Below, one piece after another: positions 3,200 through 34,772 of a stretch of 64,000 nucleotides of DNA. Position 1 is the first letter of the stretch, and the number at the start of each line of letters is the position of its first letter. The stretch is from Amphiscolops sp. MND2022 (lineage: Eukaryota), in NCBI GenBank assembly GCA_964187785.1, contig OZ076415.1, positions 33,480,001 through 33,544,000 on the forward strand. Direction: 5' to 3'. The position numbers and the translations under genes are program-made. The notes below the pieces were generated by a model. The model worked only from the letters and a program-made list of their open reading frames with translations. It was not told the DNA's origin and searched no databases.

Positions 3200-4304
3200 T
3201 AAGAACCAAGCCATCTTGGAAGAAGTTATGCGACGCGTGCCGTTAACTACCCTCAAGCGCGCTGTTAATTACCCTCTTGAGTCGAGTCAACTTGTTGACA
3301 ACAGTTCGAGAGTCTCTTGGAGTGAGTGATGATGAAGAATAAACAAGCCATTTTCAAAGGAAGACGACAACTAATGGAATTCCATTCAGGAAAGTTTACG
3401 CCGACTTAGGACAATTAACCGGGGTTTTAGCCGCTAAATTGATGTAAATGTCTCGTATATGGAGTCGCACGGACTTAACTGTGACTGAAGATGTTGAAAT
3501 ATGATTTGTTCATTTTAGAACTACCGCGTTTGGGTGCTGTTCGTTTGACACGATGGTGACCTAGGTAGGACCTAGCTAGGACAGCCGTCTGAGCCGTGCC
3601 CTAACTTGCGAGGATCTTGATGAAGGAGCTACTCAAGTGTACATGTAGAGTGAGATGAAACATACGTCAGTTCATCCAGAAATTGTACAGGTGTGAACAC
3701 TTTCTGCTACTGCTTGCTATACAACAGGTGCAGCCCAGAAGGTAGTCTTATCCTTGTGAAGTTTGGACATTCGGTCCACTTGACAGCAACAACAAACTTG
3801 AATCACATATGTCGAACGAACTCTTAATCTTTGAATACGTGTACATTTTTATCTTCATCTATATTTGTTTTGCTGATGCTGTAAAAAACTTTCATTTGGA
3901 AATTTTCAGACTCTTTTTTCAATTTACTTTCAAGATTCAAGCATTTTCTTCCAAGTTACTCCTCTCAAGGTTCAGGCATTTTCTTCCAAGTTACTTCCAA
4001 GATCAGGCATTTTCTTCCAAGATACTTCCAAGATCAGACATTTTCTTCCAAGTTACTTCCAAGATCAGGCATTTTCTTCCAAGTTACTTCCAATATCAGA
4101 TATTTTCTTGCAAGATCTTGCAAGACCAGACATTTTCTTGCAAGATCTTGCAAGACCAGACATTTTCTTGTAAGATCTTGCAAGACCAGACATTATCTTT
4201 CAAGATCTTTCAAGATACCTGCAAGAATAATGCATTGTCTTCCAAGATCTTGGAAGTGAAATCTGACAGATTCTTGCAAGAAATGTATGGGAGTTCGACT
4301 GGGG
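3200..4304. mobile_element. Unclassified composite insertion in the fibre-like gene
   Basis: Flanked by TATCTAC at 3193-3199 and 4305-4311; the Maverick repeat resumes on both sides. Right end GTTCGACTGGGG; no matching left TIR. Confidence 0.5.
3940..4260. repeat. Degenerate ~30-bp tandem repeat
   Basis: Units such as TTCCAAGTTACTTCCAAGATCAGGCATTTTC grading into TTGCAAGATCTTGCAAGACCAGACATTTTC. Confidence 0.85.
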
Positions 4305-6856: not shown

Positions 6857-6862
6857 TTATAT

Positions 6863-7367
6863 TGTAGCAATGCGCTATTTCTAATTTAGTTCATTTTCCC
6901 AACAGAGGAAATTGACTCAGAGACATAATAATTTCCAAAGCGGAATTATTAGAGCATTTTAATTTCTAAGCGAATAGCAACGCGCTAAAAGGAAATTGCA
7001 ATTCCCAAATTCCTTTAATGCTCAGCCAATAGGAAAAAGCCACGCGACAGTAGAACTGTCCTGAGCTGGAAAGAGAAATACAGGTACCCATTCCAACGCG
7101 GAACACTGAGAATTCACTCGCTCTCTTCTCTTCTCTTTCTTTCCTTACTTTGCTCTCTGACTTAAAACTCTCCCTTAAATTCAGCTGACAAAGAGTCCTG
7201 AATTTTAACTTAGAAATATTCTAAAGTCTGAAATGCTCGACTTAGAAAATTATTCTATCTTATAAACACCCCACTTCTAATTTACCTTCACTTTATAACA
7301 ATTTTTTGAGACTTATTGCAAAGTTAGAAAGCGAGTCCTAAGTAACTAAAATCACCGGTTTACAACA
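6863..7367 (+). repeat. 5' LTR
   Basis: Identical to 18583-19087 except at 7048/18768 (C/T) and 7308/19028 (G/T). CCAAT box near 7026. Confidence 0.97.
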
Positions 7368-7369
7368 TC

Positions 7370-7381
7370 TGGTGCGACCAG
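7370..7381 (+). promoter_or_regulatory. Primer-binding site (PBS)
   Basis: TGGTGCGACCAG 2 nt after the 5' LTR, complementary to a tRNA CCA end. Primer tRNA not assigned. Confidence 0.75.
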
Positions 7382-8029
7382 AGCAAAGAACAAAATCACT
7401 CCGCAATTTGTACGACCATAAAACCGAGCGTACAAAATAAATCTCTTTTCCCTGTGGTGGGTCCTATTTTGCAAAACTGAAATATTTAAAGCAAATATTT
7501 TTGAGAAAATTCAAATTCTTGTTTTTGCAACACTTAGTATCTAAAGCAGATACTAAACAAAATTTCAATTTTTGCAACATTTAGTAATCCAAAGCAGATA
7601 CTAAACAAAATTCATACTCTTGGTACTGAGTCTAAACAGTATCAACTAACGCTAGCTTCGGTATTAGCGTGTGCGGGTTCCGTGGAAGAAATTTATTTCT
7701 GACACACGAGTGTTCCTTAAATTGCACGATCCCAGCGAGGTTTCGCAAGAAATTGGAAAGTCCATATTTCACCTCGCCTGCTGCCTTGGAATCTAGCATT
7801 TCGTGTTAAGGCTTAAATACGCAGAAACTGTCCGTTTCAAAGGAGCAACAAAACTCCAAAAATATATATTTGCCAAAGGATCAAAGAGATTCCTTTGTGA
7901 ACAATTTCTATATGTGTATTGGAGCAAAGAAACTTCTACACAAAAAACCAGTCTGTTATTGCCAGAAATAATAACAAAATTGTCAATTGTGAAAAAAAAG
8001 GAGCAAAATAAACGTGATTAAATAGACAA

Positions 8030-9132
8030 ATGGCAAACACTGTAGCGTACCCTGACTTAGCATTAGAAAAATTCATTGGAATTGACTCAAGTGAAGATCC
8101 AACTGCCTTTACTCGTTTGTTAGAAAAGAAAATCAGCTTCTCGCTAGGAAGTAGACCTACGGCAAATGAGAACGGCCAACAAACCGTTTATGACGACCGT
8201 AGAAAAGCACTTTTTGGATCAGTCCTACGCGGACCTGCGGCTGAGTGGTTTGATTCACTAGACGCTGCGTTAACATGGGAAGAATGAAAACACAGTTCAT
8301 AAACAGGTTCACGGACGGAAAAATGCAATATAGATTCCGAATTGAGGCCGAGAATCTGAAAAGACAGCCTGATGAAAATATAAAAAGTTACATCCACAGA
8401 ATAAAAACGTTGGTAGACAAAGGCTGGCCAACACCGTCAAATGCGAATCAAGAGGCTATCACAGCATGCGAAAATCAGAGAATTGGGAAGTACAAAGACT
8501 ACTTCATAAGAGGCTTAATGCCCCCGGGTCTTAAACAGAAAGCCCATCAAGCAATGATTGAAGATCCCAACAAATCATGGGACGCTTTACAGGCTCTTAT
8601 CATAAATAAAGATATGAGTTTAGTTGTGAGTGCCGAAATGTCCGGCTTGCAACCTTCAAGTTCCCAAACTTCAACAGGGACAATGGACGCCCGTTTCACT
8701 AACATAGAGAAAACATTGAATGAAATCACCAACATGGTGAAAAATCATCAAATCAATGCTACCTATGACCCGAACAACCCAAAAATGAAACAAGACTTTA
8801 CTAGATTTTGCAACTATTGCAAAAAATCCGGACACACAATCAAGTACTGTTGGACATTGAAAAAGAAGAAAGAAAACGAGGAAAAACCTCCTCCCCAACC
8901 AAAAGAAACATATGCGCAAAACTATCCAAGTCGACCCAAGTCTCCGAATAATAACACATCGCAATCGGACAATCGGTCCAACGGCCAAAGAGGCAGAAGT
9001 AATAGTCCTTATGTTTCAAATAGCTATCGAAGCAGAAGTAACAGCTACTCTGGAGCTGTTCGGTTCGAAGCAAGGCCTGACAAGGTGAATTCTTTGTATG
9101 ACACTCTGCAGTCATGCAATCCTTTAAACTAA
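8030..9132 (+). CDS. gag: Gag with one internal frameshift near 8283
   Basis: 8030-8287 (KFIGIDSSEDP..LRGPAAEWF) continues in the -1 frame (KTQFINRF..CNYCKKSGHTIKYC, a CCHC knuckle). Confidence 0.85.
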
Positions 9133-12100
9133 TCAAGTCTCCGAACCAACAAAGTGAGGAATCAAATGAAACCCCTCACATTCCAACTGCTGGAACGTCC
9201 GGCCAACATTTTTATATAGAATTATTCCAATACGCCGTCGGAGACAAAAATAAACATAATGGCCTTAGCACCCAATTTCTCATAGATACTGGCGCAACGT
9301 GCTCCATTATCAACCGTGAGACATTCACTGAGATTAACAAAATTCAGCCTTTAGTTGTAACGCCTCTCGAGAAATCGCCTTTAGCTGCTAATGGACACGC
9401 AATGCCCATGAAAGGGAAAACTATTATTCAGTCTGCGTTTGACGTAGAATATTCTTGTGTGATCGAACACACTGTTTATGTGTCTGATTCCCCCGAGGCG
9501 AGAATGAACATTCTTGGAATGGATTTTTTGGCAAATTTTGGTGAATTCATTAACTTGAGAAATCCAATGCTAATTTTAACGGTCTTCCCCGGCAAATGTG
9601 TTAAACTGTCGCCTTATTTAGACAAGCCTTTTCCCTACTTCTCCCAGGTTAATTCAGTAGAATTGACTCAAGACATTACAATTGCACCGTATTCGACCCG
9701 AGTTTTGAGTTTAATTGCTAGAGATGAAGATAAACATTTGTTCAAACAGGGAACAAGTTTCCGTTTACACCAAGACATTTTAGATACTGGCATTTACAGG
9801 TATCACGTGTATTGCTCACAAGACGAGTCGAAATATCCTTTAATGCTGAACAATCCGAACCCGAATAGTATTACTATTCGTAAAGGAATCCTTGGATACA
9901 CATTGCTCGACAGCGTCCAAGAGACCTCGCAATTGATGAGTGTCGTTGACAATGTCGCTTTCATTGAGTATCTCAAAACTTCTGAGTCTCAATGGAACAA
10001 GGATTTACACGTTTGTTCGACCGAACCGTATATTTATTCCTTAACGGAAATTGATTCACGGAAACAAATGGCCGAAAGCGCTATTTCGCAAAATGAACTG
10101 GCTACTGATTTCTCCAATGAGGTGAAATCATTACAGCCCAAAATTGCTTCCGATATTAAAAGGAAACAACTCGACGATGAATTTTACGCCGAGTTTAGTC
10201 CCGCCGAACGCAACTTTTTAGAAAAGTTCGACTTTTCTGAATCTGATATGAATGACCGTGAATTACAACATCTTCTCCGAGTTTTAGTTGAAAACAATGA
10301 CGTGTTTTCAAAATTTACTTATGATGTTGGAAAAATCACACAAACATTTCATGTACAATTGAAGAAAAACGCCGAATTACGAAAACAAAGGCCCTCAAAA
10401 GTCCCTCTGCACTACAGAGACCGACTTGAAATTCTTCTGAATGAACTGCAACGAGCTGGAATCATTCGAGAAATGGGAAATGATGTGGAAATGGGTTCCC
10501 TATTCACAAACCCTATCATCATTTTACCAAAAGGAGATACCGTGAAGCTTGTGATTGACGCACGTTATCTTAACTCAATCACTGACTTGACTAACTACTC
10601 ATGGCCCCTTGAACCAGTACAAATGTTACTGACACGACTTGATGGAGTTTATTACACAACGAGTGATTTAGCTTCCGCCTATAACCAAGTACCCCTCACC
10701 GAGGATACGAAGAAGTTGACAAGCTTTATTGTTGGTGGAAAACAGTACATGTTCGAACGAGGATTCTATGGTCTTTGCGGACTACCAAACTTCTTCAGTT
10801 GGATAATGACTATTCATTTCGCTGAAATGATAGCCAAGAAACAAGTGATAACATATATTGATGATGTTATCTTACAGGCAAAAACCAAACAAGAAATGTG
10901 GAATAATTTGGATTCATACTTCAAGTGCTTGAGATCATCAGGTCTGAAAGCTGCACCGAACAAAACAAAACTGTTCTTGAGGAAAGTTCAGTTTCTTGGA
11001 CACATTGTTTCCGACAAAGGAATCCAGCCAGTAGCCAAAAAGGTACAAGATTTGAAAAACCTGAAAAGCCCTGAGAACAAAAGAGATGTAATGCGCATCT
11101 TAGGAAGTTTAGGTTTCTACAGCACCTTCATCAAAAATCTACATGTAGATTCGAAACCTTTCTACGAACTTCTGAGAGATGACACTCCATTCAAATGGAC
11201 AAAAGAGCATGAGAACTTGTTCCAAGACATAAAAAATAGAATCAGCGAAGAAACCATCTTAGCTGTACCAAACCCAAAGTATCCGTTCCACATCCATGTC
11301 GACTCCTCCAGTATTGGTACGGGATCAATCTTAATTCAAGATTTTCCTTCCGGGAAACGTATAGTTTCCTTCAATTCGCGAGTCTTTACAAAGGATGAAC
11401 AAAAGATGTCAACGCTACATCGAGAACTGTGCGGAATCATTTCTGCTCTACAAACGTATGAGCATTTCATAATTGGATCTCGGCATCCCATCAAGGTATT
11501 CTGTGATCACAAGCCCCTCCTGTATCTATGGGCACGCAAAGGAAGATTATCTCATAGATTCTTCCGCTACCAAGTGATTATCACTCAGTTCACTAATTTG
11601 CAAATCATTTGGACCCCTGGAAAGAATTTAGCGTTTCCAGATTTGCTGAGCAGGAATGTGTCGTTGAAAGATCTCAACGGTCACCAATTACTTCACAAAG
11701 AAATTGCAAAAGATATAAAGTTCTTCAGCCAAAGTGGACACGAAGTTCAGTATCTGATAGACCACAACAGCCCTGCTGAAAGCGCCAATGATGATTTTTA
11801 CCCAATTGTTTGCACTCACCTGGGTGAAACCAAGAAGCTTCACCTGAAAAAAGATGGTACAGATCTTATTTGTACGGTATACGATCCAAACTCTCCGAAA
11901 GCGCTCTTTGATGTTTCTGACTCCTTCCGTGAAGGTAAGGACATCAACATTCGACGTAAATGGCAAACCCCACCAATGGTTGTGGAAGCCGAAGTTCAGG
12001 AAAATCATTATTCCGAAATTGACTCCGAAACTGACAATAGTGACAATGAGGCTTCTGACGAAGATCCTCTATTGAACACAGAGGTTGTAAATGCATCTAA

Positions 12101-14048
12101 AGAAGATGTTCCTTTCATCCTCTCCATTTTCACCATTCAAGACTCACTACAACCATTGAAACTCGTTACCGATAATCTAGATTTAAACAATATTTTGGCA
12201 AACCAACAGGATGACCCAGTCCTGAACACTGTTAAATCATGGATAATTAAAGGCAAAGTGCCGTCAAAAGATGTTGAGTCCCGACAATGCAAAGGATTAC
12301 TCGGTTATTCAAATCAATTTGAAAAATTGTTCATTGACGAAGAAACACACCTTGTTTGTAAAACTAGCAAGCATTCATCACGACAAATATGTCTGCCCCG
12401 CAACTGTTTCATTGAAGCTTTCAATGTTGCACACGATCATCGGCTTTCAGGACATCCAGGATGTGAAAAGACACTTTCGTCTCTGAAAAGACTTTTCTAT
12501 TGGCCTGGTATGTACAAATGGGTAAGGACTCTAACGAAGAGCTGCCTGATCTGCCGAAAAAATAAACAAATCAGAAAAGATCAAAACACCGCTCCCAACG
12601 AAAAATGGGGAGAAGAAATTCCTTATCCCTTCCACACTGTTCACATTGACCACAAAGGACCTTTGAATCCCATGAGTGACGGAAAACATCACTGTTTAGT
12701 TGTGATTGACGCATTCTCACGATTCATACAAGTTTACCCAGTCAAGTCGACTGATGCAAGTAATACTATTGAAGCCATGACTTCTTTCATTACTTCATTT
12801 GGTTTTCCTCAAAAACTTGTATATGATAGAGGTACGTCGTTCATGAGCACTGATTTCTCAACCTTTCTCTTGGATTTAGGCATAACGCATGCCCCAAGAA
12901 CTAAATGGTCCCCTTGGACTAACGGCAAGGTTGAAATCCAAAACAAACACCTCAGTCGATACTTTCGATGCTATCTTTCCGAAGCAGGAAATAATTGGGC
13001 CAAGCTGGCTCCTCAATTCGCCTTTGCTCATAACACTTCAGTGAACGCCAGTACAGGAGCAACTCCCTATGAAGTTGTTTTTGGATTTAAACCACAAATT
13101 CCGATTTCGTTGAAACTAGGTCTCGTAAGAGACGACAATGATTTGTGTCAATCCGAATTCTGTCAGTCTTTACCTGACCATTCACACATGAATAAAGACA
13201 CGAATCATTCTTGCATTGACTCCTTACTGACGTCAAAATGTTCGTTGGATTTGTTACACAGAGAAACACAATTCAAAAACATATACAGAAAAGTATATAC
13301 CAAAGTTCGTAAAGCGAATCATCGATCTCTGCCGTACCGAAACAAGTACAAACTCGCTAAACCATTGCGAGTTGGACAAAAAGTACTACTCGAAAATCAT
13401 CAAGTCCCATTCGGGAAATCACAAAAGTTGTGCGAGCTCCGAAGTGGACCGTACACTGTGACTAAAGTGATCGCGAAAGTGAACTACCAAGTCGCGCTCG
13501 ATTCGGATCCAACGAGGATTCAAGTCGTTCATCGTAATCATCTCGTTGAATTCTTCCCTCGTGACAATGATTTACCGACTTTATTGTCCAATTACGAAAA
13601 GCCTGTCAACGACGACAGAACCGAACATTTTTACAACGAGTATGCAAAGAATCGACTCTCCGAATTGAACAAACCAATTGAAGCGCTTGCTGAACGACAG
13701 CACGTACAAGAATACTTACCTATTTTTCCCGACGCTCCTGGTCCATCCAGGATGAACACGACTTATAGTTCGCCTGCTAAATGCGGCTCTGCTCATTCGA
13801 CACCGAATTTCTTAGCGAGCTCCCCCGACTCTGGCATCCCGCAGTCATCTCCTCAAACCCCTATTTCATTTCAAGGAGAATCGCCAGCAATAACCAGTCA
13901 GCCAATCACTCCTAGTCCTTTGCCTCGCACTTTTAGTACTAACCCAAACAATATTCCTTCAAATAGCACTGCCGCTGCTCCACGCTCAAGAAACACTGGA
14001 ACGTTACGAAACATTCCTAGAGAGTGGTACGGAAAGCCTTATTTCTAA
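9114..14048 (+). CDS. pol: Pol polyprotein PR-RT-RNase H-IN (1644 aa, intact)
   Basis: LIDTGA protease; DLASAYNQV and YIDD RT; VDSS / ELCGI / CDHKPL RNase H; HDH..GH..C..C zinc finger; HIDHKGP / YDRGTSF / VEIQNK DDE core; GPY motif. Domain order is Ty3/gypsy. Confidence 0.97.
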   Translation: MQSFKLIKSPNQQSEESNETPHIPTAGTSGQHFYIELFQYAVGDKNKHNGLSTQFLIDTGATCSIINRETFTEINKIQPLVVTPLEKSPLAANGHAMPMKGKTIIQSAFDVEYSCVIEHTVYVSDSPEARMNILGMDFLANFGEFINLRNPMLILTVFPGKCVKLSPYLDKPFPYFSQVNSVELTQDITIAPYSTRVLSLIARDEDKHLFKQGTSFRLHQDILDTGIYRYHVYCSQDESKYPLMLNNPNPNSITIRKGILGYTLLDSVQETSQLMSVVDNVAFIEYLKTSESQWNKDLHVCSTEPYIYSLTEIDSRKQMAESAISQNELATDFSNEVKSLQPKIASDIKRKQLDDEFYAEFSPAERNFLEKFDFSESDMNDRELQHLLRVLVENNDVFSKFTYDVGKITQTFHVQLKKNAELRKQRPSKVPLHYRDRLEILLNELQRAGIIREMGNDVEMGSLFTNPIIILPKGDTVKLVIDARYLNSITDLTNYSWPLEPVQMLLTRLDGVYYTTSDLASAYNQVPLTEDTKKLTSFIVGGKQYMFERGFYGLCGLPNFFSWIMTIHFAEMIAKKQVITYIDDVILQAKTKQEMWNNLDSYFKCLRSSGLKAAPNKTKLFLRKVQFLGHIVSDKGIQPVAKKVQDLKNLKSPENKRDVMRILGSLGFYSTFIKNLHVDSKPFYELLRDDTPFKWTKEHENLFQDIKNRISEETILAVPNPKYPFHIHVDSSSIGTGSILIQDFPSGKRIVSFNSRVFTKDEQKMSTLHRELCGIISALQTYEHFIIGSRHPIKVFCDHKPLLYLWARKGRLSHRFFRYQVIITQFTNLQIIWTPGKNLAFPDLLSRNVSLKDLNGHQLLHKEIAKDIKFFSQSGHEVQYLIDHNSPAESANDDFYPIVCTHLGETKKLHLKKDGTDLICTVYDPNSPKALFDVSDSFREGKDINIRRKWQTPPMVVEAEVQENHYSEIDSETDNSDNEASDEDPLLNTEVVNASKEDVPFILSIFTIQDSLQPLKLVTDNLDLNNILANQQDDPVLNTVKSWIIKGKVPSKDVESRQCKGLLGYSNQFEKLFIDEETHLVCKTSKHSSRQICLPRNCFIEAFNVAHDHRLSGHPGCEKTLSSLKRLFYWPGMYKWVRTLTKSCLICRKNKQIRKDQNTAPNEKWGEEIPYPFHTVHIDHKGPLNPMSDGKHHCLVVIDAFSRFIQVYPVKSTDASNTIEAMTSFITSFGFPQKLVYDRGTSFMSTDFSTFLLDLGITHAPRTKWSPWTNGKVEIQNKHLSRYFRCYLSEAGNNWAKLAPQFAFAHNTSVNASTGATPYEVVFGFKPQIPISLKLGLVRDDNDLCQSEFCQSLPDHSHMNKDTNHSCIDSLLTSKCSLDLLHRETQFKNIYRKVYTKVRKANHRSLPYRNKYKLAKPLRVGQKVLLENHQVPFGKSQKLCELRSGPYTVTKVIAKVNYQVALDSDPTRIQVVHRNHLVEFFPRDNDLPTLLSNYEKPVNDDRTEHFYNEYAKNRLSELNKPIEALAERQHVQEYLPIFPDAPGPSRMNTTYSSPAKCGSAHSTPNFLASSPDSGIPQSSPQTPISFQGESPAITSQPITPSPLPRTFSTNPNNIPSNSTAAAPRSRNTGTLRNIPREWYGKPYF
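9123..9129 (+). promoter_or_regulatory. -1 ribosomal frameshift slippery site U_UUA_AAC
   Basis: The gag frame ends CCT TTA AAC TAA. A -1 slip gives FKLIKSP, the pol frame. Confidence 0.8.
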
Positions 14049-14159: not shown

Positions 14160-16514
14160 ATGTTTTATTTTATTCTTTTCCTTTTTCCTTTTTCTTGTGC
14201 AAGTGATGACTTTGACAATGTGTCAAAGAACTTGTTTGTATCTCATTACGATTGCACAAAAATGCAAGACAATCGAATGTACTCCCTGAATAAGGTAGCA
14301 GAATGCAAGATTACACCAGAAAACTTGTATGTCACGCCGGTTACTATCACACTTTATCAGAAGAACTACCGGACTGACCTGGCAGCAACAATGTGTTCTG
14401 TCAAGGCCCATGTCTTCCGCTACAATTGTGGAATGTTTTCGCATTCGTCCTACGTTCATACTCAAAATAGTATAACATATGACCTCATCGTTACCCCTGA
14501 AATGTGCCGACAGGCATCAAAGACAAACAAAATTAAAATTTCGTCTTTTAGCGAAAACTTCGATGCCCCAATTGAATTCGATACAAAGAAACAATCGAAT
14601 TTCAATGATAGACAATCAGTCCGCACAACCATTCATTGCTCAAGTGGTCAAGTACAGCACTATACCTTCGAGACGTTCATGCAACGTGTGAATTTGACAT
14701 TCGATTACGGAACCAAAGAGGTTTCCAATCCAAATAAACAAAAATTGCCATGTCTTTTAATGGAGGGTGGTTGCGAGACCACTACTTTAGACCCATTCGC
14801 TTACACGTGGGATACTCCCGAAAACTGCGTGATGACAAAAATCCTCACTCAGGAAGCAAAAATGCTTAAGTATCCATTGTCAACGAACAGAAACGAAAAC
14901 CAATTTTTCCTAATCAGCGAATATAATGAGACTGGCAAAGGAATGAACCTCAAAATCAAAGTCTTCCCTGAAAGCTATGAGCTATGTGGGAAACCTGAGC
15001 GATTGTTCGAAACAAATTTTGAGAGTCTATTTGTGACTTACCAAGGAGGTTTCGCAATGCCAGGTGGAGAACTACGAACTAAAGAACATGCTTTTAACGC
15101 CTACCAATTTTCCATTGACAACTCTAGCCAGGTCTCTTATTCGTCATTATCTTTCAGCAAATCAAATGGCCAATGGATTGGTGCACAGCCTTGGCATACC
15201 GTCGGCGCGGATGAAATTGATTATGAATTGCACTTGGGAACAAAGTTAGACTATATAATGTACTTCAATGCGAAGCAATTGAGGCATTCTGAAATGACAC
15301 TTCTGCAGAGTCAATGCGAACTCGAACGAACTCAAATGTTAACTATTTTAATGTTAGCAATGCAAAACACAAGACTTGCCGGTTACATGTTAACTGGAAA
15401 CATCTCTATGTTCCTTGACACCGATGGAAGTGTCGCACGGTTATACCATTGTCCGAAGTTTTTGTCGCCCTTGAAAGTGCTTGATAAATGTTATGATCGA
15501 ATCCCGATCATGTTTGAACGGTCTACGAAATTTGTAGATCCTATCACCCGTCAGACTTATGATTTTGCATCCGAGATACCCTGTTTGGGAGATTACACAA
15601 ATGTGTTTCAACTTGATCTCGAAAATGACAATTCCTGGTACCAACTTTTACCTGAGCCCATGCCTTTCAATAAACCTTTGTTGTTCAAGCCAACTGAACT
15701 TGGACATATTACTCAGTTTCCAACTTTCGACACCAGGCGTGCTGGAATGTACACCCCAAATCAAATGAAAAATTTTTGGGATAATGTAATCCACAACTCT
15801 TCTTCTGATACATTATTGAAGAAGCTTACTCGGACTATTTTGACTCGAGGTAACTCAGTTCGAATTTCCGAACCGGGAAACTTGGAACGTCTTTTGAGTC
15901 TAAATGATAGACTTCTGTTGGATCACTTGTTGACGCCTTCTTTTTTCGTCGATAAATTCAAGGAAACTTTTGGCGAATTGGGATATATTATTCAATGTTT
16001 AGGAAACTTTTTTGCTTGTTTCCTTTTGGTAAAGTTCGTTATTGATGTTGTTGTCATCGTCCTCCGAGGACTTGAAATTCGAAAAGTTTCTGGTGCCACT
16101 TTTGGTTTTGTCAGAACTATGTTAGGCGCAACTTTTAATTTATTTGTTCTCTCACTTCAGACTCCAATGTACGAAAATGAGGAAAATAAAAGGATTTCAA
16201 ATGGTTTCTCGCAGAACCCTGCAGGCAATAGACCTATAGCTGCACCAATGTACGAAGAAAATCCGACTCTTTTGTATCCTCAAGTACATCTCTTGAACAA
16301 TCCGATTGCGATTGGTTCTACTCTTAATGAAAGACAAAGAGCTGACTCAAATGTATTAAATCAAACAGGAAATGCTCCTAGTACATTAAATACCTTTTTA
16401 CAAAATAACAATGGCAATAACAGTTCTGGAAATGCTCCGTCTACTGTCAATGAAAATGCTCCTAGTACCTCAAATAACAACAGTAATGGAAATGCTCCAT
16501 TACCCCCACCATAA
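14160..16514 (+). CDS. env: Envelope glycoprotein, class III (chuvirus G / gB-type) fusogen-like
   Basis: N-terminal signal peptide; HYDC..YSLNKVAEC, CGMFSH, PEMC, CELER..LAGY, HC..KCYDRIP..FVDPITR..PC motifs; six N-x-S/T sequons; TM segment near 15995-16075; long N-rich tail. Confidence 0.8.
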   Translation: MFYFILFLFPFSCASDDFDNVSKNLFVSHYDCTKMQDNRMYSLNKVAECKITPENLYVTPVTITLYQKNYRTDLAATMCSVKAHVFRYNCGMFSHSSYVHTQNSITYDLIVTPEMCRQASKTNKIKISSFSENFDAPIEFDTKKQSNFNDRQSVRTTIHCSSGQVQHYTFETFMQRVNLTFDYGTKEVSNPNKQKLPCLLMEGGCETTTLDPFAYTWDTPENCVMTKILTQEAKMLKYPLSTNRNENQFFLISEYNETGKGMNLKIKVFPESYELCGKPERLFETNFESLFVTYQGGFAMPGGELRTKEHAFNAYQFSIDNSSQVSYSSLSFSKSNGQWIGAQPWHTVGADEIDYELHLGTKLDYIMYFNAKQLRHSEMTLLQSQCELERTQMLTILMLAMQNTRLAGYMLTGNISMFLDTDGSVARLYHCPKFLSPLKVLDKCYDRIPIMFERSTKFVDPITRQTYDFASEIPCLGDYTNVFQLDLENDNSWYQLLPEPMPFNKPLLFKPTELGHITQFPTFDTRRAGMYTPNQMKNFWDNVIHNSSSDTLLKKLTRTILTRGNSVRISEPGNLERLLSLNDRLLLDHLLTPSFFVDKFKETFGELGYIIQCLGNFFACFLLVKFVIDVVVIVLRGLEIRKVSGATFGFVRTMLGATFNLFVLSLQTPMYENEENKRISNGFSQNPAGNRPIAAPMYEENPTLLYPQVHLLNNPIAIGSTLNERQRADSNVLNQTGNAPSTLNTFLQNNNGNNSSGNAPSTVNENAPSTSNNNSNGNAPLPPP

Positions 16515-16808
16515 AGTTTACAAAAAACGTTTACTCTTTAGTGAAATTTCTCTTACTTAAAAGTGATAAGGCTTCTTGGAATAGATACCACTGTGATTGT
16601 TGATGTTTTTCTTCTGGTCACAAACATAATGACACCAGCACAAATTGACTTACAAACCCTATATAACTCGCTTTCTAAAATTTAGTACAGTCGCCAACTA
16701 CTTAACCTCAAGCCTAATACCAACTATTTATTCTCCAGTTACTCCACTTATCCAGTTCTCTTGCTTTTGATATTCACTTTTCATATTCAACTACAAATAT
16801 AATTTATA

Positions 16809-17339
16809 ATGTCGCATGCTATTAACTTGTTCGAACCTGAAGGTTTTATCCCCAACGACTTACGCCCTCCTAATGTCAACTTCCGATCACGAAAAACTAA
16901 GCGGGTAAAGCCCTGCTTCCCCAAACCCTTCAGGCAGGCTAACAAAAGAATAGCCTCTGAAGCTCCTGAGCCAAATTGGCCAAAAAAGACATCCAAATTG
17001 GAAAATGATATGAACTTAGACCCTAACCGCCTGTCAAAGAGACTCGGTGATGGGAAAATTAAAGGCCCCTCGTGCGTGTCAAGGAGACTCGACGACGGGT
17101 TACCCAAAGAAAAAAATTAGTTTCCAAGCCTTAAAGAAAGACTTGATATCCAAAAGTCCCGAGAGACAAATATAGATACAGACGACCCAAAATTCATTAA
17201 ATTCCTGAAGTATGGTATGAGGAAGGACCATAATGAATGGTTCCTTGCCACACCTAAACAAGGAAGTGAACTTGTTAACAAGAAGTTGAATTGTTCCATT
17301 GTCATTCCCCCTGAACGCTCCCCCGCTATAAACATTTAA
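16809..17339 (+). CDS. Accessory ORF4, basic/Pro-rich; in-frame TAG at 17118-17120
   Basis: 103 aa to the TAG, then 72 more open codons in the same frame to TAA at 17337-17339. Lies inside the LTR-bounded element. Confidence 0.55.
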
Positions 17340-17352
17340 TCTACCAAAGGAA

Positions 17353-18369
17353 ATGAATCAATGGAGACTAAAAGATCGTCTTCCCGAAGAAAGGAAGTAC
17401 GTAATCTACAACCATCAAATTGATTCTCTAATTAAAGCCCCCTTTGGTGTAATCACCGCGTTTCCTGACGACCCAAACCCCCTGTTTAACGACAACGCCA
17501 GTACTTGTAGCTCGTCAATCAGTACACCAGCTTCCAAGGAATCACATCATGATAATTCCCAAATCTCACACAACAAACAACCAACAGTCAATGCGACTAC
17601 ACAAACAAAAAATGAAGAGTGGATAGACACACCTGATACCAATCTTACCGCTGCACTCTGGAAAACTGAATTCGCAATTGCCGAATTTGAACAGCAAAAC
17701 CGTAGTCTGAATATCGAACTAGCCAACTTAAAGAATGCCCTCTGCTCTGCCAATCGATCACGAGCAATGGCTAAAGAGAATGCAACTCGAGCAGAATTTA
17801 AGTTAGAGATCTCCGAAAGAGTAACATCAGACCTTTTCGATGAGAACAAGGAACTGAAGAGCCAAATTGAAGAAGCGACCTCCAAAGCGGAGTCACTTCA
17901 AAGTCAACTCTTGGAGTCCATTAAAACAAACATTCTTCTCAAAGAAAAACTTGATGCCTTCGATGAGGCAAATAAACAGTTCAAGGAGATCCTTGATAAA
18001 AAGGACACCAGGCTCAAAGACCAAGCTAACATCGACAAATTGATCAAACAACTGCAAATAATGAGAGTCGAGATTGACATTCAACGTGCAGAGGCTATCC
18101 AGTTAATCCAAGCAGTAGATGGGAAACAATATGAAAAATTAGAAAAATGCCTACACGCCCTGTTAACCCATGCAGACCACTGGGATTGGCAACAGTATGA
18201 GAAGTATTCCATATTTAACCTAAAACGAGGAAATGTAAAAGCCAGACTATCAACTGTATACTACCCCATCGCCTATAACTTCGACAAGGATCCAGAATGG
18301 AAAACCAAATGCACTAGACTACCCTGGCCTGTCAACACGAAACAAGTCCCAACCGGAAAGAATCATTAA
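17353..18369 (+). CDS. Accessory ORF5, 338-aa coiled-coil protein of unknown function
   Basis: Intact ATG-to-stop ORF with a heptad-like E/K/Q/L-rich core and an aromatic C-terminal domain (HADHWDWQQYEKY..LPWP). Confidence 0.75.
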   Translation: MNQWRLKDRLPEERKYVIYNHQIDSLIKAPFGVITAFPDDPNPLFNDNASTCSSSISTPASKESHHDNSQISHNKQPTVNATTQTKNEEWIDTPDTNLTAALWKTEFAIAEFEQQNRSLNIELANLKNALCSANRSRAMAKENATRAEFKLEISERVTSDLFDENKELKSQIEEATSKAESLQSQLLESIKTNILLKEKLDAFDEANKQFKEILDKKDTRLKDQANIDKLIKQLQIMRVEIDIQRAEAIQLIQAVDGKQYEKLEKCLHALLTHADHWDWQQYEKYSIFNLKRGNVKARLSTVYYPIAYNFDKDPEWKTKCTRLPWPVNTKQVPTGKNH

Positions 18370-18570
18370 AAGCCCCTATAAACTGCTCTTCAACAAAAAC
18401 TGAAACTCTTTTAACATGATAATTTGCTTAAACATATTTAACTTTTAAAATTTCTTTACCTTAACGTAAACTTTACATAAAGCTTTACCCATTATTCATT
18501 ATATCCATTTTATAACCATTATACCCATTAATTGATTTTGGTATTACGACTAATGCAGTCTTCTCTGTCA

Positions 18571-18582
18571 ACTGGGGTGAGT
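18571..18582 (+). promoter_or_regulatory. Short polypurine-tract candidate (PPT)
   Basis: ACTGGGGTGAGT directly before the 3' LTR; atypically short. Confidence 0.45.
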
Positions 18583-19087
18583 TGTAGCAATGCGCTATTT
18601 CTAATTTAGTTCATTTTCCCAACAGAGGAAATTGACTCAGAGACATAATAATTTCCAAAGCGGAATTATTAGAGCATTTTAATTTCTAAGCGAATAGCAA
18701 CGCGCTAAAAGGAAATTGCAATTCCCAAATTCCTTTAATGCTCAGCCAATAGGAAAAAGCCACGCGATAGTAGAACTGTCCTGAGCTGGAAAGAGAAATA
18801 CAGGTACCCATTCCAACGCGGAACACTGAGAATTCACTCGCTCTCTTCTCTTCTCTTTCTTTCCTTACTTTGCTCTCTGACTTAAAACTCTCCCTTAAAT
18901 TCAGCTGACAAAGAGTCCTGAATTTTAACTTAGAAATATTCTAAAGTCTGAAATGCTCGACTTAGAAAATTATTCTATCTTATAAACACCCCACTTCTAA
19001 TTTACCTTCACTTTATAACAATTTTTTTAGACTTATTGCAAAGTTAGAAAGCGAGTCCTAAGTAACTAAAATCACCGGTTTACAACA
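18583..19087 (+). repeat. 3' LTR
   Basis: 503/505 identical to the 5' LTR; followed by TSD ATAT. Confidence 0.97.
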
Positions 19088-19091
19088 ATAT

Positions 19092-21186: not shown

Positions 21187-22766
21187 TTAGTTGATTGGAT
21201 TACTCGCTGGAATATAAAGCGGATCAAGGTTCAATATTTATTTCCCTTTTCTGATTTTTGTAAGATCGAAAGTTATATTATGATAATCTGTTGCCCAAAC
21301 ATCATGACGAAAATTTTGAACACTTCAATTGTCATATCGGTGCTAGCTAATTGTCTTTGGATGCAATCCACATAGGAAACCCGGGTTTCCCTCCCATACA
21401 AAAACTGGTCAATCATACTCTGCCATCATACTCACAGTATGATTTCAGGCTGATCATACTCTGGACCATAATGGTTTATGGTTCCAGGCTGACCATACTC
21501 TGGACATATATGGTCCAGTCTATGATCAGCCTGGAACCATAAAAAAGCAAAGTGTATGGTTCCAGCCTGACCATATTCTGGGCCATATATGGTTCAGTCT
21601 ATGATCAGCCTGGAACCATAAACCTTTATGGCCCAGAGTATGGTCAGCCTGGAGCCATAAAAAGAAAATTAGGATAATGTAGTCAATTAACACGTACACT
21701 GATGAAATTACAAGATATTCCTCAACCAAAGGTCCAATACAATCACCAAATTGAAAACAAGGTAGCAATCATCAATTTTGGGCATCTTTTGCTGAATTAT
21801 TGGTAATTTTTCTAGAAATAATCGAAAATCATACTGCAAAGTGGGTACTGCTATAACAAAAGAGTTAGTTATTAACAAATGACTGGTTGAGAACAAATTG
21901 AGTTACTATAGTTTGTTTTTAACTCCGCTTAGAGCTTAACGGAGTTCTGACCTGCAATGTATCGTTCGCAGATACAAAAGGTCGAATGTGGCTCCACTGC
22001 CTTCAGCCTATAAAGCTGGCTGTTCTCAATATTTGAAAATTTTTGTTTGAAAATTGAAAATATATAAATTTTAAAAAATTATGATTCCAGGCTGGCCATA
22101 CTCTGAACCATATATGATTCCAGGCCGATCATATATGATTCCAGGCCGATCATACTCTGGACCATATATGATTCCAGGCCGATCATAGCAAGATCTAAGT
22201 AAGGAAATTTGTATGATTTCTATGGTGCTATAATATGGTCAGATTATGATCGGCCTGGTCGGGAAACCCGGGAAAACTCCTAGTCAAATTGGATGAATGG
22301 CTGATGAGTTTTCTCGAAATGTATCTTTTGGTAATTCGTAGAAACCATATGTAAAAACAAAAACACAAAAGTTATTATGGCGACCTGTTTTGAACTGCAT
22401 CAGTACTCCTTCATCATTCAGTTGTTCTTTGGTTCGATCATCGAGTAAAATCATTTTATGTTTATCGATAATCTTGTAGATTCTTTAGTTCATCAAAGTT
22501 TCAGCAGTGTTTCTGTCAGAATTTCATATATAATGTTTGGTGGTAAAAAAAACTTTGTCAGCATTTTACAATTTCGTGACAAGGTTCTTGATGAATTGTA
22601 TGAGAAGACATATAAATTTTGTCAAACTCATTATTAACTTCAAATATTATTTCGAAAAGCAAAGTTGACTTTCCGCTAGCACTTTTACCTGATATTATTC
22701 ATCTAATTGATGATTTGGTAGAAAATGTCCATTTAGGTTTTAAAACTTTGAACAACTTTTCTATAA
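21187..22766 (-). pseudogene. Maverick A32/FtsK-like packaging ATPase, split by an insertion
   Basis: IISGKSASGKSTLL (Walker A), FDKIY, ILLDD (Walker B), FKTGRHNN, FYELPKDTFREN; after the insertion LASTDMTIEVFK..ITFDLTK..LNLDPLYIP. Confidence 0.88.
21380..22272. mobile_element. Non-autonomous DNA transposon, CMC/EnSpm-like
   Basis: TIR CCCGGGTTTCCC / GGGAAACCCGGG; AA(A) on both flanks; subterminal arrays of GATCATACTCTGGACCATATATG(G/A)TTCCAGGC in both orientations. Confidence 0.75.
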
Positions 22767-26425: not shown

Positions 26426-27177
26426 CTTACTTTGCTGAATTACGCAGAAGTATCTCACTGTCCCGGATAACAAGACGACACTGGCATGTTACTCCCCATT
26501 GGTTATCGCCAATAAGAAGGTGGTGGGAATGATGCAATAGAGCTGAAATAAATGCAATCAATGAGCCTCATGCTACACCATTACCTGCCATTTTGTTGGT
26601 TTTTCATACATGTTTGGAATACTCAATGTAAACGTTAGTTGGACGAAAACATGTATCATGTTACATTCTTTCATCGTGAGAGATGAAACCAGAAACCTTG
26701 GTATTTTCCGCCCACATATAATGGGGAAGGAAGATCATAATCTGTTTTGCGTTTTTCTCCCAAATTTTCCCAAATCTCCACTTTGTTACTCCATTTAGTA
26801 AATTCTAGTCACCATGGCGCAGTAGGTTCGAACCCGTGCTGATGCGTTACATTTTTAGCGGAAAGTATCCCGGTGATTAGCGGGCGTCTTGTTAACTGTG
26901 GAATGTTTTTTCACCTCGGCTAATAATCATCGTGCACGGGTTTTTCAATTTGGAACCTGAATTTGGAAACGAAATGAATCTCTTCGTTTCATAAGCGGTG
27001 AGAACCACGAAGATTGTGGCCATAAACTTTTGTCTTATTTTCCGTTCAAGACTTATAGCCATTCTTCAAGTTGATGAAAGTGTTTCAAGGCAATTTTTGA
27101 TCTGCACTTTGAAATGAATCGCTTTTTGACTAAACTTTCCTTCCACCCATGTTTTATACGAAAACAATCGACGAATA

Positions 27178-29315
27178 ACAATACTTCGCCTTCTTTGTTT
27201 TAGTTTACTATCTCCGCAATATTTTCCACTAAGTTCTCCAAATTGGGCATTCGGTGTTTACTTTTCAGAATGGCATTATTCAGCGATCTGGCATCTAGCG
27301 CAATCTTGACACTTCTGTCTTTTTTGAACGTGATTACCACTGGTTGGATGATCATTTCGTCAGATATTTTGTCGACTCTTCTGATGTGTCCTGCTTCTAG
27401 TAGACTCTAGATTTCTGCGTCCACTGCCTTCTGGAGTTGAAGCAGTACTCGGCGTCCCTTTTGTTGAGTTATCTTCGCCCCTTCTTTAAATTCAATTTTT
27501 ATGTTATGACCTGAAATTTTTCCTTGCCTTTCGAAGAGTTTTGGAAATTTGTTTTTCATTTGTTTTAGTTCTGGTGATAATTCAACGTGATTTACATGAT
27601 TTAAAATGTTGTTTTACTCACTTTCTGGTTTTGCTTCTGCTACATGAAAGTTTAGTTGTGTTAGCCAGTGGCGACCAATCAAAGACCTTTTCCCGTCTCT
27701 TGCAATTACCAGCCTTGCTTTCTTGAAGTTTCGTTTCCCCACCTGCACGTCAACTGTAAAGAAACCAAGTAAGTTTAACGGTTTTCCGTTATAATCTACA
27801 AATTGTTCATTTTTCGATAGGGGCCTGGTAAAAACCAAATCTGACTTTAATATGTTGCGTAAGTCTTCTTTTGTAAAGATCTTAGTTGGTGATCCCGAAT
27901 CGATCATAGTTGAAAATGGCTGTTTGTTTATTTTGCCTTTCAACATGATAGGCGGCGTGCCACATTTGTGCGTGGGTTTCTTCTGCGGCCATCTATCGCG
28001 TACACTGTTTCTTTTTAGTCGGCGCTTTTCTAGGGAAAAGTGCCCGACTCCTACAGTGGCTAGTTTTTTTTTTCGTCAGACTACAATCTCACTCTGATTG
28101 GGCTACTTTTCTTACAATCGAAACTACTAAAACTTCTAGCATAAGAGGCCAAGTCCGGTCAGCGGAAATTAGTGCAAAAGGGTCCCCCCTTTCATTTTTT
28201 ACCTTTTTTACGTAACCTACAAAACCGGAAGAGACCAAAGGGTCCCCCCTTTCAATTTTTTTCGGCACTGTGCAAAATTTTTTCGAAAATTTTTTAAGGT
28301 CTCAAAAGAGTCCCCCCTTTGAGTTTTTTGATATTTTGCAACAAAATGTATGTTAATAAATCCCAAAGGGTCCCCCCTTTTCATTTTTCGGCACTATGCG
28401 ACATTTTCGAAGTTTTTTCAAAAAAAAAATTTCCAAAAAATTTTCAAATTTTATTTTGTTCCCAGTCGGGAAACAGTGATTTTCCAGTCATATAGAGCAT
28501 GAAAGGCACACTTTGGGTGTCTCCAAAGTGTTTTCAAAGCTTTTCATGAATACGTCCTGAGCATATTTAGAAAACTTTGCGCTTCTTGAGCCTTAGATAT
28601 AGCGCCGACTTTAGACGTTCCCGTCTTGTTTTTTTGTACTGCCACCCGTGTAGTTTTGTTGTTGTGCAATTCCTTCTCCAAAGGTAATAGCGAATCGTAA
28701 CGCTTCCTGCGGTTGATTTTTCGGATCAGTGCACAAGCGTTCTTGCACTGTTTTATTGTGCATGTTTTGAATGAATGCGTCCATGATCAATCCTTCCGTC
28801 TGTTGATCAAATTCACAACGTGCTGCTAGGCCTGTCAGTGCGTTCCAGAACTGTCGAAGTGACTCATTAGGTTGATGCTTTCGTGAAAAGAACTTGAAAC
28901 GGTCTAATGTTCTGTTTCTTGGTCTTTGGAACGTTTCCTCGCAGTTTGTTTTAATTTCATTTAGTGACGCTGTTGCAACTGTCATATTCGGATATTTGTC
29001 CGTTAGATTCTTTCGTGCAGCTGTTACCAGAGACAAGAACAAAATGCTTACTATTTTGCGTTCTGCGCGGCCTGTTCGTTGATGTTGTTCAGTAAAGCCG
29101 CCTGCCGTGGTTGGTTTTGTGTGGGTCTTCGCAGTAATTCGTGAACGGAGATAGAATGTTTGGCATTAACTGCTACTATGAAGATGTCCCACAGTTTTTT
29201 CTATTCTGTTTTAGGTGGAGTCTCGTGATGATCCCAGAATGATGGCAGTCCCGCCAGAGCTGACGGACTCCTTGATGATGTGCTTTCGTTCGCGTCATGA
29301 TGTCTCGCAGCGCCA
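27178..29315 (-). pseudogene. Truncated second internal region of the Mag-like element (gag, PR, start of RT)
   Basis: Near-copy of 32805-34579, with its own PBS next to 29316, a deletion of the zinc knuckles, and an insertion at 28017-28630. Confidence 0.85.
28017..28630 (-). mobile_element. DINE-1/HINE-like non-autonomous Helentron element
   Basis: Inserted in a T run. One end reads AACAAGACGGGAACGTCTAAAGTCGGCGCT. The other is a hairpin AGTCGGCGCTTTTC-TAGG-GAAAAGTGCCCGACT that carries the complementary sub-TIR. Internal GGGTCCCCCCTTT repeats. Confidence 0.6.
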
Positions 29316-29512
29316 TGTAATAGCTATCTGTAGCTGAGATAATTACAGAACACTGGTGAACAAGCAATACTGCATTCTCGTTAGACCTTGTGGCAACTGG
29401 ACGTATTTTTATTCAAGTTTTACATGGTTTTTGTATGTAAGCAACTTGTTCAATTAATTATTTTAGACTGCTCTTTTTTTTATTGAGTTCAGCTCGAGAT
29501 TGCTCTCTCACA
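29316..29512 (-). repeat. Shared LTR (3' LTR of the right copy, 5' LTR of the left copy)
   Basis: On the minus strand it is preceded by a PPT and followed by a PBS and gag. Confidence 0.85.
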
Positions 29513-31630: not shown

Positions 31631-33590
31631 TTAATTGTTCTTTTCTGAATGTTTTGCCATAGGTTGAGTTTCCGCGATGTGCTTCTGTTGGTTTTCTGAA
31701 ACAAATTTATTACAGGTTGTTCCATTTACCGTGAACCAGTTGCTCCACATTTCTTCTGCTTTAATTTTGTGTATGTTATTATTATTTTCTAATGGGTGAC
31801 GGGATAGCCAATCTGCTATCCCTATTGTGCCACCTGGGAACATATACTACTGTAAATTGGAATGGTAGTAGGCGGTCTACCCTTGTTAGTCTAGAGGAAA
31901 ATGTTTTGTTCGATCTGTTTGTTTTTAATATTGATGCTAATGCCTTATGATCAGATATGACTTCGAATTCTGTACCACATACGAAATTTCTAAAATTTTC
32001 TATAGACCATACTACAGCTAATAATTCTAGTTCGTTAATAGAGTATTTCTTTTTAAATTTGGTCAAGAATCTAGATGCGTAGTGAGTTGTTTCCCATTCC
32101 GTGTTCTGTTTTCGTTGAAGTACTGCCCCTAGTCCTTCTTTGCTAGCGTCGCAGATGATTCTTGTTGGAACATCTCTTTCAAATGTATTATTTCTGTTAA
32201 TTTCTTGATTGCGTCTTTGATTCGTTTAAGTGCTTCTTCTTGCTCTTTATCCCATTTCCGTTCGTTATCCTTGCATAGTAGTGGTCTTAGTGGGGCGCAT
32301 AAATGAGCTAGACCAGGAATGAATCTATTCATTTGAATGATGGCTCCGATGAAAGATCGTAAGTCTTTCAGATTCTCTGGGCGCAGTCTATCCGTGATGG
32401 CTTGCACTTTTTCATCTATTGGTTCGACTCCGGCTGCTGAAAATTCATAGCCCACTCATTCTGTTTCCCTTTTTGCTGATTTACACTTTTCTATTTTCAA
32501 ACTTATTCCTGCTTTATCTAATACAGTTAAAACTTCTTCGACTTTTTTCATGTGTGACTATTTAGTTCCTTTTGTGACTATTAAAATGTCATCAAGAAAT
32601 ACAAACGTGTTCTTTGTTGATGGTAAGATGTTACCCATGATCTTTTGGAACTCTGGGGGCATTATTGGTAATTCATAATAACCTGTGTTGAATGCATATG
32701 TTCCGGTTGACTCGCCTCCCAGAATCTGGCAATTGCAATGCTCTGCTGTGTCCGGGTGGAGCAGTGTTTGTCCATATGCATATAGCATATCCAATGATGA
32801 GAACATTACTTCGCCTTCTTTGTTTTCGTTTACTATCTCCGCAATGTTTTCCATTAAGTTCTCCAAATTGGGCATTCGGTGTTTACTTTTCAGAATGGCA
32901 TTATTCAGCGATCTGGCATCTAGCGCAATCTTGACACTTCTGTCTTTTTTGAATGTGATTACCACCGGTTGGATGAACATTTCGTCAGATATTTTGTCGA
33001 CTCTTCTGATGTGTCCTGCGTCTAGTAGACTCTTGAATTCTGCGTCCACTGCCTTCTGGAGTTGAAGTAGTACTCGGCGTCCCTTTTGTTGAGTTATCTT
33101 CGCCCCTTCTTTAAATTCAATTTTTATGTTATGACCTGAAATTTTTCCTTGCCTTTCGAAGAGTTTTGGAAATTTGTTTTTCATTTGTTTTAGTTCTGGT
33201 GATAATTCAACGTGATTTACATGATTTAAAATGTTGTTTTACTCACTTTCTGGTTTTGCTTCTGCTACATGAAAGTTTAGTTGTGTTAGCCAGTGGCGAC
33301 CAATCAAAGACCTTTTCCCGTCTCTTGCAATTACCAGCCTTTCTTTCTTGAAGTTTCGTTTCCCCACCTGCACGTCAACTGTAAAAAAACCAAGTAAGGT
33401 TAACGGTTTTCCGTTATAATCTACAAATTGTTCTTTTTTCGATAGGGGCCTGGTAAAAACCAAATCTGACTTTAATATTTTGCGTAAGTCTTCTTTTGTA
33501 AAGATCTTAGTTGGTGATCCCGAATCGATCTTTGTTGTGAATGGTTGTTTGTTTTATTTTGCCTTTCAACATGAAAGGTGACGTGCCATT
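31631..33590 (-). pseudogene. PR-RT-RNase H of the Mag-like element, frameshifted
   Basis: IDSGSP, QPVVITFKKDRSVKIALDAR, FLDDIL, ELELLAVVW, SDHKAL. Confidence 0.88.
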
Positions 33591-33598
33591 TCCTCCTT

Positions 33599-34564: not shown

Positions 34565-34579
34565 GATGTCGCAGCGCCA

Positions 34580-34772
34580 TGTAATAGCTATCTGTAGCTG
34601 AGATGTTTAGAGAAAACTCGTGAACAAGCAATACTGTATTCTCGTTAGACCTTGTGGCAAACGGCCGTATTTTTACACAAGTTTTATACAGTTTTTGTAT
34701 GTAAACAACTTGTTCAATTAATTATTTTAGACTGCTTTTTTATTGAGTTCAGTTCGAGATTGCTCTCTCACA
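34580..34772 (-). repeat. 5' LTR of the Mag-like element
   Basis: TGTGAGAG..TATTACA, followed by the PBS. Confidence 0.88.

Follow-up and report, generated by a model that had tools for sequence, protein, structure and literature searches.

ORF5, the reading frame between env and the 3' LTR of an LTR retroelement in Amphiscolops sp. MND2022, makes up the 3' two-thirds of one gene of 519 codons, which the copy studied here carries in broken form. In sister copies this post-env gene is, judged from the ratio of dN to dS, maintained under strong purifying selection. Profile comparisons indicate that the N-terminal domain of its product (N-domain) is homologous to a small ORF4 located behind env in three further families of the same genome (E, F, and G), and this homology across families points to a whole Ty3/gypsy clade with an accessory region resembling that of complex retroviruses. 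Positions refer to the window, i.e., the whole stretch of 64,000 nt that was analyzed, or to individual env loci of this genome (L numbers; Table 1).

A search of the 1.07 Gb assembly with ORF5 returned 106 matches, the best 30 of which were taken as loci. A post-env reading frame of at least 500 aa, typically 519, is present in 14 of these 30 loci. The initial annotation had described an intact 338-aa ORF5; an ATG-to-stop frame does exist at 17353-18369, but it is a fragment, as its Met is read through in 21 of the 30 loci by a single frame starting from the Met at 16809. In the window copy, an in-frame stop (17118-17120) lies within the frame that ends at 17339. It leaves an ATG-started 5' piece of 103 aa that ends 232 nt before ORF5, and not 13 nt as had been stated for ORF4. 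The open stretch before the ORF5 Met is shortest in the window copy, at 7 codons (29 loci scored). This Met is considered internal and not conserved because, of 135 database relatives examined, 85 carry the motif and 80 of these have a Leu at the position. ORF4 and ORF5 of the window are thus pieces of one gene over which siblings carry 519 codons. The element therefore has four genes, not the five, two of them accessory, that had been proposed; two breaks in a single copy produce the apparent five-ORF layout, and the window copy itself probably makes no full post-env protein.

One further copy among the 30 loci is also split just 5' of the ORF5 ATG, and sister families do have two genes in that region. 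Together with the existence of the 338-aa ATG frame, this could suggest that ORF4 and ORF5 are separate genes, or that ORF5 is a functional truncated product in the window copy. Such a reading is highly improbable, since the start Met is unconserved, the end of the 5' piece recurs in none of the other loci among the 30, and the gene breaks at an ordinary rate. Of 21 whole copies, 12 have retained an unbroken gag, 5 an unbroken pol, 10 an unbroken env, and 12 an unbroken post-env gene. Breaks per 1000 codons amount to 1.08 for the post-env gene and 0.88-1.52 for gag, pol, and env, in loci chosen by ORF5 similarity, a choice that favors unbroken ORFs. The similar rates point to ordinary decay.

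Table 1. Features of the window copy, and genes behind env in further loci of the same genome (L numbers).
Feature	Position	Strand	Remarks
Left target-site duplication	6859..6862		4 bp; right copy 19088-19091
5' LTR	6863..7367	+	505 nt, TG...CA; 2 mismatches vs 3' LTR
Primer-binding-site-like sequence	7370..7387	+	begins TGG, 2 nt past 5' LTR
gag	8030..9132	+	frameshifted in window copy near 8275-8287
Slippery-type heptamer (putative)	9123..9129	+	gag end; pol in -1 frame; from sequence
pol: protease, RT, RNase H, integrase with SH3-like end	9102..14048	+	Pfam
env, 784 aa, chuvirus/gB-type fusion glycoprotein	14160..16514	+	PF24664, E 3.9e-41
Conserved spacer block	16660..16690	+	TATA-like hexamer and TTTAG splice-acceptor-like site (16681-16685)
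Post-env gene, 5' fragment	16809..17120	+	ORF4 of the initial annotation; ends at premature stop
Post-env gene, middle fragment	17121..17339	+	helical part of N-domain; ended by frameshift near 17335-17340
ORF5, 338 aa	17353..18369	+	residues 182-519 of post-env gene; ATG-to-stop frame
N-domain, three-strand part	17353..17463	+	homologous to ORF4 end in families E, F, G
Coiled coil, residues 275-399	17632..18006	+	
Conserved helical C-terminal domain	18025..18339	+	fold not matched; not MATH
Short purine-rich plus-strand primer-like tract	18571..18582	+	precedes 3' LTR
3' LTR	18583..19087	+	
Coiled-coil + TRAF-MATH genes without RING	L081:5136-5906, L083:4981-5799, L086:5133-6179, L088:5294-6286, L089:5275-6255, L090:5298-6320, L096:5165-6328		
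Family G ATG-less ORF4 frames	L088:4773-5351, L089:4757-5356, L090:4639-5319, L096:4740-5225		

The order of the pol domains, protease-RT-RNase H-integrase, is that of Ty3/gypsy elements (Metaviridae; Pfam). In a PDB sequence search the RT-RNase H region was nearest to Ty3 (E 1.6e-36), ahead of foamy (1.4e-26) and MLV-type (3e-14) sequences. Further Ty3/gypsy traits are the TG...CA LTRs, the short target duplication, and the primer site. By these comparisons, the element is an env-carrying Ty3/gypsy element whose pol is Ty3-like rather than retroviral. We take the heptamer at the end of gag to belong to the slippery-type motif class, and a foamy-like spliced pol was dropped in view of it. The env follows pol and, as judged from its Pfam match to PF24664 (141 bits against a cut-off of 27), is related to chuvirus/gB glycoproteins, as in gB-type errantiviruses; an AG and a pyrimidine tract lie immediately 5' of its ATG. 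Sibling copies are likewise bounded by 4-bp duplications, and gag is a single 367-aa ORF in 12 of 21 copies. The first 9 nt of the primer-binding-site-like sequence are common to families B, G, and H, and a tract similar to the plus-strand primer-like tract was found in families B, E, F, and G. The distance from the end of ORF5 to the 3' LTR (about 213 nt) agrees with the 210 nt or so originally reported. The end of the pre-LTR tract (18576-18583) fits a splice-donor consensus in families A, B, E, and one copy of family G; another family G copy has a plain purine tract there. The window also contains a partly duplicated, strand-skewed region (27177-29480 and 32802-34744, about 5.3-5.6 kb apart), and, at 3899-4206 and 21438-22187, a tandem array of 30-31-nt units and a 54-nt repeat, some copies of which are inverted.

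A comparison of dN/dS between copies had been proposed as a check in the initial annotation. Between subfamilies A1 (the window type) and A2, the post-env gene exhibits a dS of 1.09, a dN of 0.077, and a dN/dS of 0.07 (21 pairs), indicating strong purifying selection. In one pair, dN/dS was 0.11 for residues 1-181 and 0.05 for residues 182-519 (bootstrap upper bounds 0.17 and 0.08, respectively), and the C-terminal domain (C-domain; 18025..18339) has a dN of 0.037 at saturated dS. As no region of the gene lies above a dN/dS of 0.16, there is no arms-race signal. Selection here is strongly purifying, and signs of positive selection are absent, which lends no support to a fast-evolving antagonist of host silencing; antagonists of silencing had been among the functions suggested.

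Elsewhere in the element, dS between A1 and A2 is far lower (env 0.03, pol 0.12, and gag 0.16), and it is therefore concluded that the post-env gene was swapped between the subfamilies as a cassette. The cassette boundary is sharp and lies within the env-ORF spacer. The LTR hardly varies in its 5' half and has two alleles in its 3' half. Strict co-inheritance of ORF allele and LTR allele was rejected, as the A1 LTR allele accompanies an ORF of non-A1 type in four loci. In addition, the LTRs of families A and B show no significant similarity to each other. Taken together, these two observations mean that no co-varying DNA target was found. Recombination boundaries between the subfamilies were observed at 16650-16750, 18450-18550, and 18840-19087, and the accessory gene and the 3' half of the LTR swap independently of one another.

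Protein database searches identified 111 relatives, 22 of them full-length at 60-65% identity, and distant relatives of 416, 418, and 587 aa (28-36% identity) keep both conserved domains. The term "orphan," used for ORF5 initially, is thus apt in that there is no Pfam or PDB match, but not in view of these relatives and of several families in the genome. For one of the 60-65% relatives, a search of this genome yielded no match above 65%, and this relative must therefore come from another assembly. An env sequence lies upstream on the same strand in all 11 divergent loci opened. One env-less copy keeps the post-env gene unbroken; this copy is young. In a profile search of a 5.8-billion sequence set, the best 120 of 259 matches were all of close family-A type. 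None of 12 pattern matches in IMG/VR was confirmed. Among metagenome contigs, 1 of 185 passed (E 1e-5) and was rejected, as it matched only a 9-residue motif on a contig without a retroelement-like ORF.

The genome is rich in genes for PF24664-type env proteins (68 scored out of 5,700 first-look candidates), and 20 env loci, chosen by eye to span env lengths, were opened. Coding sequence was found behind env in all 20, one of which carries a decayed relative of the post-env gene. In 13 loci, belonging to families E, F, and G, env is followed by an ORF4 of 150-230 codons and then by an ORF with a coiled coil and a MATH domain. Three related families from this genome thus do have the five-gene layout (gag, pol, env, ORF4, ORF5), with a TRAF-like ORF5. 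The remaining six loci represent family H and contain two other post-env ORFs. ORF4 of families E, F, and G has a dN/dS of 0.08-0.10, and values for ORF4 and the TRAF-like ORF range from 0.04 to 0.15 where dS is unsaturated, i.e., purifying. Family F ORF4 has more than 100 close matches in the genome. In families E, F, and G (L121-L128, L081-L096), pol and env lie 2-5 kb apart, and the interval contains additional ORFs of 130-180 codons that recur between copies; the elements of these families reach about 17 kb. The family H element (18.9 kb) has a single 2,637-codon gag-pol frame and a 923-aa env (L093; L130/L092), and its post-env ORFs of 495 and 298 aa (L093:5834-7321 and 7937-8860) show no Pfam match.

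The E/F/G ORF4s consist only of an acidic/Pro-rich leader, a basic patch, and a domain of the N-domain type. They align with the N-domain of the 519-aa protein in two collinear blocks separated by about 45 extra residues; the blocks score 35.5 and 38.5, whereas the maxima after column shuffling were 18.2 and 15.4. Reciprocal profile scores were 9-25 bits (shuffled maxima, 8), and hhalign gave a probability of 93% for the three-strand part of the N-domain with the end of ORF4. The corresponding score for family H ORF4 was 5 bits, within the shuffles. Env and RT trees place families E, F, and G together and apart from A and B, with H on a long branch; no order of events is claimed, because the trees are midpoint-rooted and have no outgroup.

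The full protein begins with a short acidic-hydrophobic stretch, followed by a basic disordered stretch, the N-domain (residues about 95-220), a Ser/Thr-rich linker, the coiled coil, and the conserved helical C-domain. The long coiled coil named in the initial annotation was recovered, with heptads over residues 277-437 and a helix at 275-399 in the AF2 model (pLDDT mostly 80-90; mean of the full model 50.6). So was the Trp/Tyr-rich C-terminal part, which is predicted to be helical at low model confidence; both N- and C-domain of the 519-aa protein fold poorly in their own AF2 model. Structure prediction and Foldseek, also suggested at the outset, thus provided a model of the coiled coil but no fold match beyond it. 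The same holds for Pfam, PDB sequences, and the ESM Atlas: PDB sequence searches returned coiled-coil noise only, or nothing, and the ESM Atlas contained no match of at least 0.9 for the full protein and no usable one for the N-domain of family B. A Foldseek comparison of the full model with viral structures returned nothing at E 0.001, and a VIA fold search gave generic coiled coils only (Z up to 7.5). Complex prediction with two copies of residues 270-519 scored 0.11 (mark 0.32).

Better modeled is the N-domain-type domain of family E, for which 23 sequences yielded a helix and three strands at a pLDDT of about 90. Fold searches with it returned only weak similarities, for the most part to Tudor, KOW, PWWP, chromo-barrel, and SH3 folds, none of them significant (Z up to 4.2; Foldseek E at least 0.6). 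The best was HypC (Z 4.2, rmsd 1.8, 37 aligned), and SMN Tudor reached Z 3.7 (rmsd 3.4, 42 aligned). With the family E domain as model, a small barrel weakly similar to SH3, Tudor, and KOW domains may be considered as a lead only. An origin of the barrel as a copy of the element's own integrase SH3 end was not supported (score 10-11, within shuffles).

A K-K/R-x-K/R motif is present in five of six proteins, immediately N-terminal to the N-domain in three divergent ones, and is missing from one 65% relative. The first 40 residues have a net charge of -5 to -9 in three divergent proteins and of +2 to +3 in family A, and the acidic patch of the latter is therefore short. No membrane or hydrophobic segment was detected in six of six proteins (maximal 19-residue hydropathy 0.83). 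Along with purifying selection and deep synteny, this supports the earlier proposal that a Ty3/gypsy element maintains an accessory gene in the interval from env to the 3' LTR. The missing membrane anchor and the basic import-like motifs also speak against a structural or assembly factor, such as a matrix-like linker of Gag to the gB-type Env or a trafficking adaptor. Such a role would suit a gene that always adjoins env, in an element with a short Gag (367 aa), that encodes a long coiled coil and has no host-like copy among the loci opened; it is nevertheless quite improbable, as the env-less copy, albeit young, retains the gene unbroken.

In the TRAF-like proteins of the sister families, too, a coiled coil precedes the C-terminal domain. 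All seven MATH ORFs tested exceed the PF21355 (TRAF-MATH) cut-off, their nearest solved structures are TRAFs (E 1e-15), and they represent the last gene before the 3' LTR in three env-carrying gypsy families. They carry no RING and are possibly TRAF decoys. The N-termini of family G TRAF-like proteins resemble PAM2 (PF07145, E 0.006-0.08, below cut-off; L088:5294-5400, L090:5298-5360, and L096:5165-5360), a possible link to poly(A)-binding protein. Relations of the C-domain to the ORFs of family H, or to a J-domain (a likeness by eye; there is no HPD and the helix is too short), were not supported. Nor was a degenerate MATH domain (hhalign P 0.48 to the sister-family ORFs; no Pfam MATH). The post-env protein might act as a host-signaling or immunity adaptor, a Nef-like decoy whose coiled coil and C-domain sequester a host signaling or silencing protein, as the TRAF-like genes likely do from the same slot in 13 of 20 env loci; exchange of the gene as a cassette would be in agreement with this. 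We consider this function rather unlikely, however, given that the C-domain is helical and unrelated to MATH, that an arms-race signal is absent, and that the N-domain is left unexplained.

Regarding expression, TTTAG occurs in 11 of 12 env-to-ORF spacers across families, 8 of them 25-53 nt, the 12 spacers coming from related families and not being independent of each other. The spacer block of the window is kept in six of six aligned copies. In family G, the ORF4 frame contains no ATG and starts directly after TTTAG in four of four loci, which points to splicing; an exon upstream of these frames was not found. The post-env protein is likely made from a spliced RNA via a putative acceptor. Because a TATA-like hexamer lies beside TTTAG, an internal promoter is possible instead; for some Tor elements, an internal env promoter has been mapped (PMC4402516). 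Acceptor-like sites before both env and the accessory ORF would imply an intron-containing genome RNA, and the post-env protein might be a Rev/Rex/CERV-like factor that binds this unspliced RNA via its basic helix and barrel, oligomerizes via the coiled coil, and licenses nuclear export. Barrels of the KOW/Tudor type are able to bind RNA. Moreover, the CERV protein of Cer1 is reported to be a spliced nuclear protein of 517 aa with a KRKK motif and a leucine zipper that is essential for export (PMC10309623). Nonetheless, an export function is on the unlikely side: neither a leucine-rich export signal nor an RNA element was identified, the likeness to CERV is one of description and not of sequence comparison, and the acidic/Pro-rich leader suits an activator better.

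In its minimal form, the gene encodes an acidic/Pro-rich leader, a basic patch, and a helix with a putative barrel, an organization like that of small nuclear activators. In the 519-aa protein, this form would be fused to an oligomerizing and partner-binding half that occupies the slot of the TRAF-like gene. Our tentative proposal, for which we see less than an even chance, is that the whole protein is a nuclear, oligomeric activator of the element's own expression, translated from spliced RNA. In this model, the acceptor in the env-ORF spacer would give rise to a sub-genomic RNA, and the basic patch would mediate import of the protein. The acidic-hydrophobic N-terminal patch would recruit the transcription machinery, while the helix and small beta-barrel domain would bind the LTR, LTR chromatin, or nascent RNA. 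Oligomerization would be mediated by the coiled coil, and the C-terminal helical domain would contact a host partner, in the slot that the sister families fill with their separate TRAF-like gene.

Regulatory genes of complex retroviruses include foamy tas/bel, HTLV tax/rex, and lentiviral nef (complex retroviruses are defined in PMC2238898). The present gene resembles them in being located between env and the 3' LTR, in its clade-wide conservation, and in its likely expression from a sub-genomic RNA. It differs in accompanying a Ty3-like pol and in lacking any sequence or fold match, and the likeness is at most a convergent layout. Neither an env in Ty3/gypsy elements nor the presence of extra ORFs in LTR retrotransposons is new. 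"Ancient errantiviruses" with gB-type env have been surveyed by Chary and Hayashi (PMC13524379) and share with the present element the gag-pol-env order, a Ty3/gypsy pol, a chuvirus/gB-like env, and many young copies. That survey annotates only gag, pol, and env, in regions of up to 10 kb; the terms "accessory," "downstream of env," and "coiled" are absent from its main text, as are TRAF and ORF4 from seven of its supplements.

Cer1 CERV of C. elegans is similar in its length of about 520 aa, its location toward the 3' LTR, its basic motif and coiled-coil segment, its several domains with flexible linkers, and its spliced expression. In contrast, it replaces env, shares gag exons, and contains a Cys ring and GTPase-like domains unseen here, and its function is demonstrated, whereas that of the post-env protein is only predicted (PMC10309623). 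Extra ORFs have been reported as bdelloid ORF3s (PMC5408684) and as sORF1/sORF2 of MDG1 (PMC11952523), and planarian Burro elements carry a TRAF MATH domain (MATH_TRAF_C) in a paper that mentions ORFs downstream of env in general terms (PMC6431247). Those extra ORFs replace env, precede gag, or sit in a polyprotein. The gene described here is conserved and non-enzymatic and is located behind a true env in at least seven families. A literature search of incomplete coverage returned no report of the post-env gene family, of a clade-wide region behind env, or of TRAF-like genes behind env, and the post-env gene appears to belong to a wider system that looks undescribed.

An accessory regulatory gene 3' of env is usually taken to mark a complex vertebrate retrovirus. 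In the env-carrying Ty3/gypsy clade studied here, each family sampled has genes in this position that, judged from their coding sequences, are strongly selected (20 of 20 loci, one of them decayed), and the largest survey of such elements left this region unannotated. It is conceivable, though at somewhat short of even odds, that this clade evolved the complex plan independently of retroviruses, combining a spliced, nuclear, Tat/Tas/Rev-like regulator, built on an undescribed domain of helix and small barrel, with a swappable host-manipulation module, which would be either a captured RING-less TRAF (three families) or, in the family of the window element, a new helical domain joined to the regulator by fusion. 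Judging by the TRAF-like genes, retroelements may interfere with TNF/Toll-type signaling, and the many young multi-copy families offer a direct way to test the function of such genes. If the N-domain protein is a transactivator or an export factor, the complex genome plan would have arisen at least twice.
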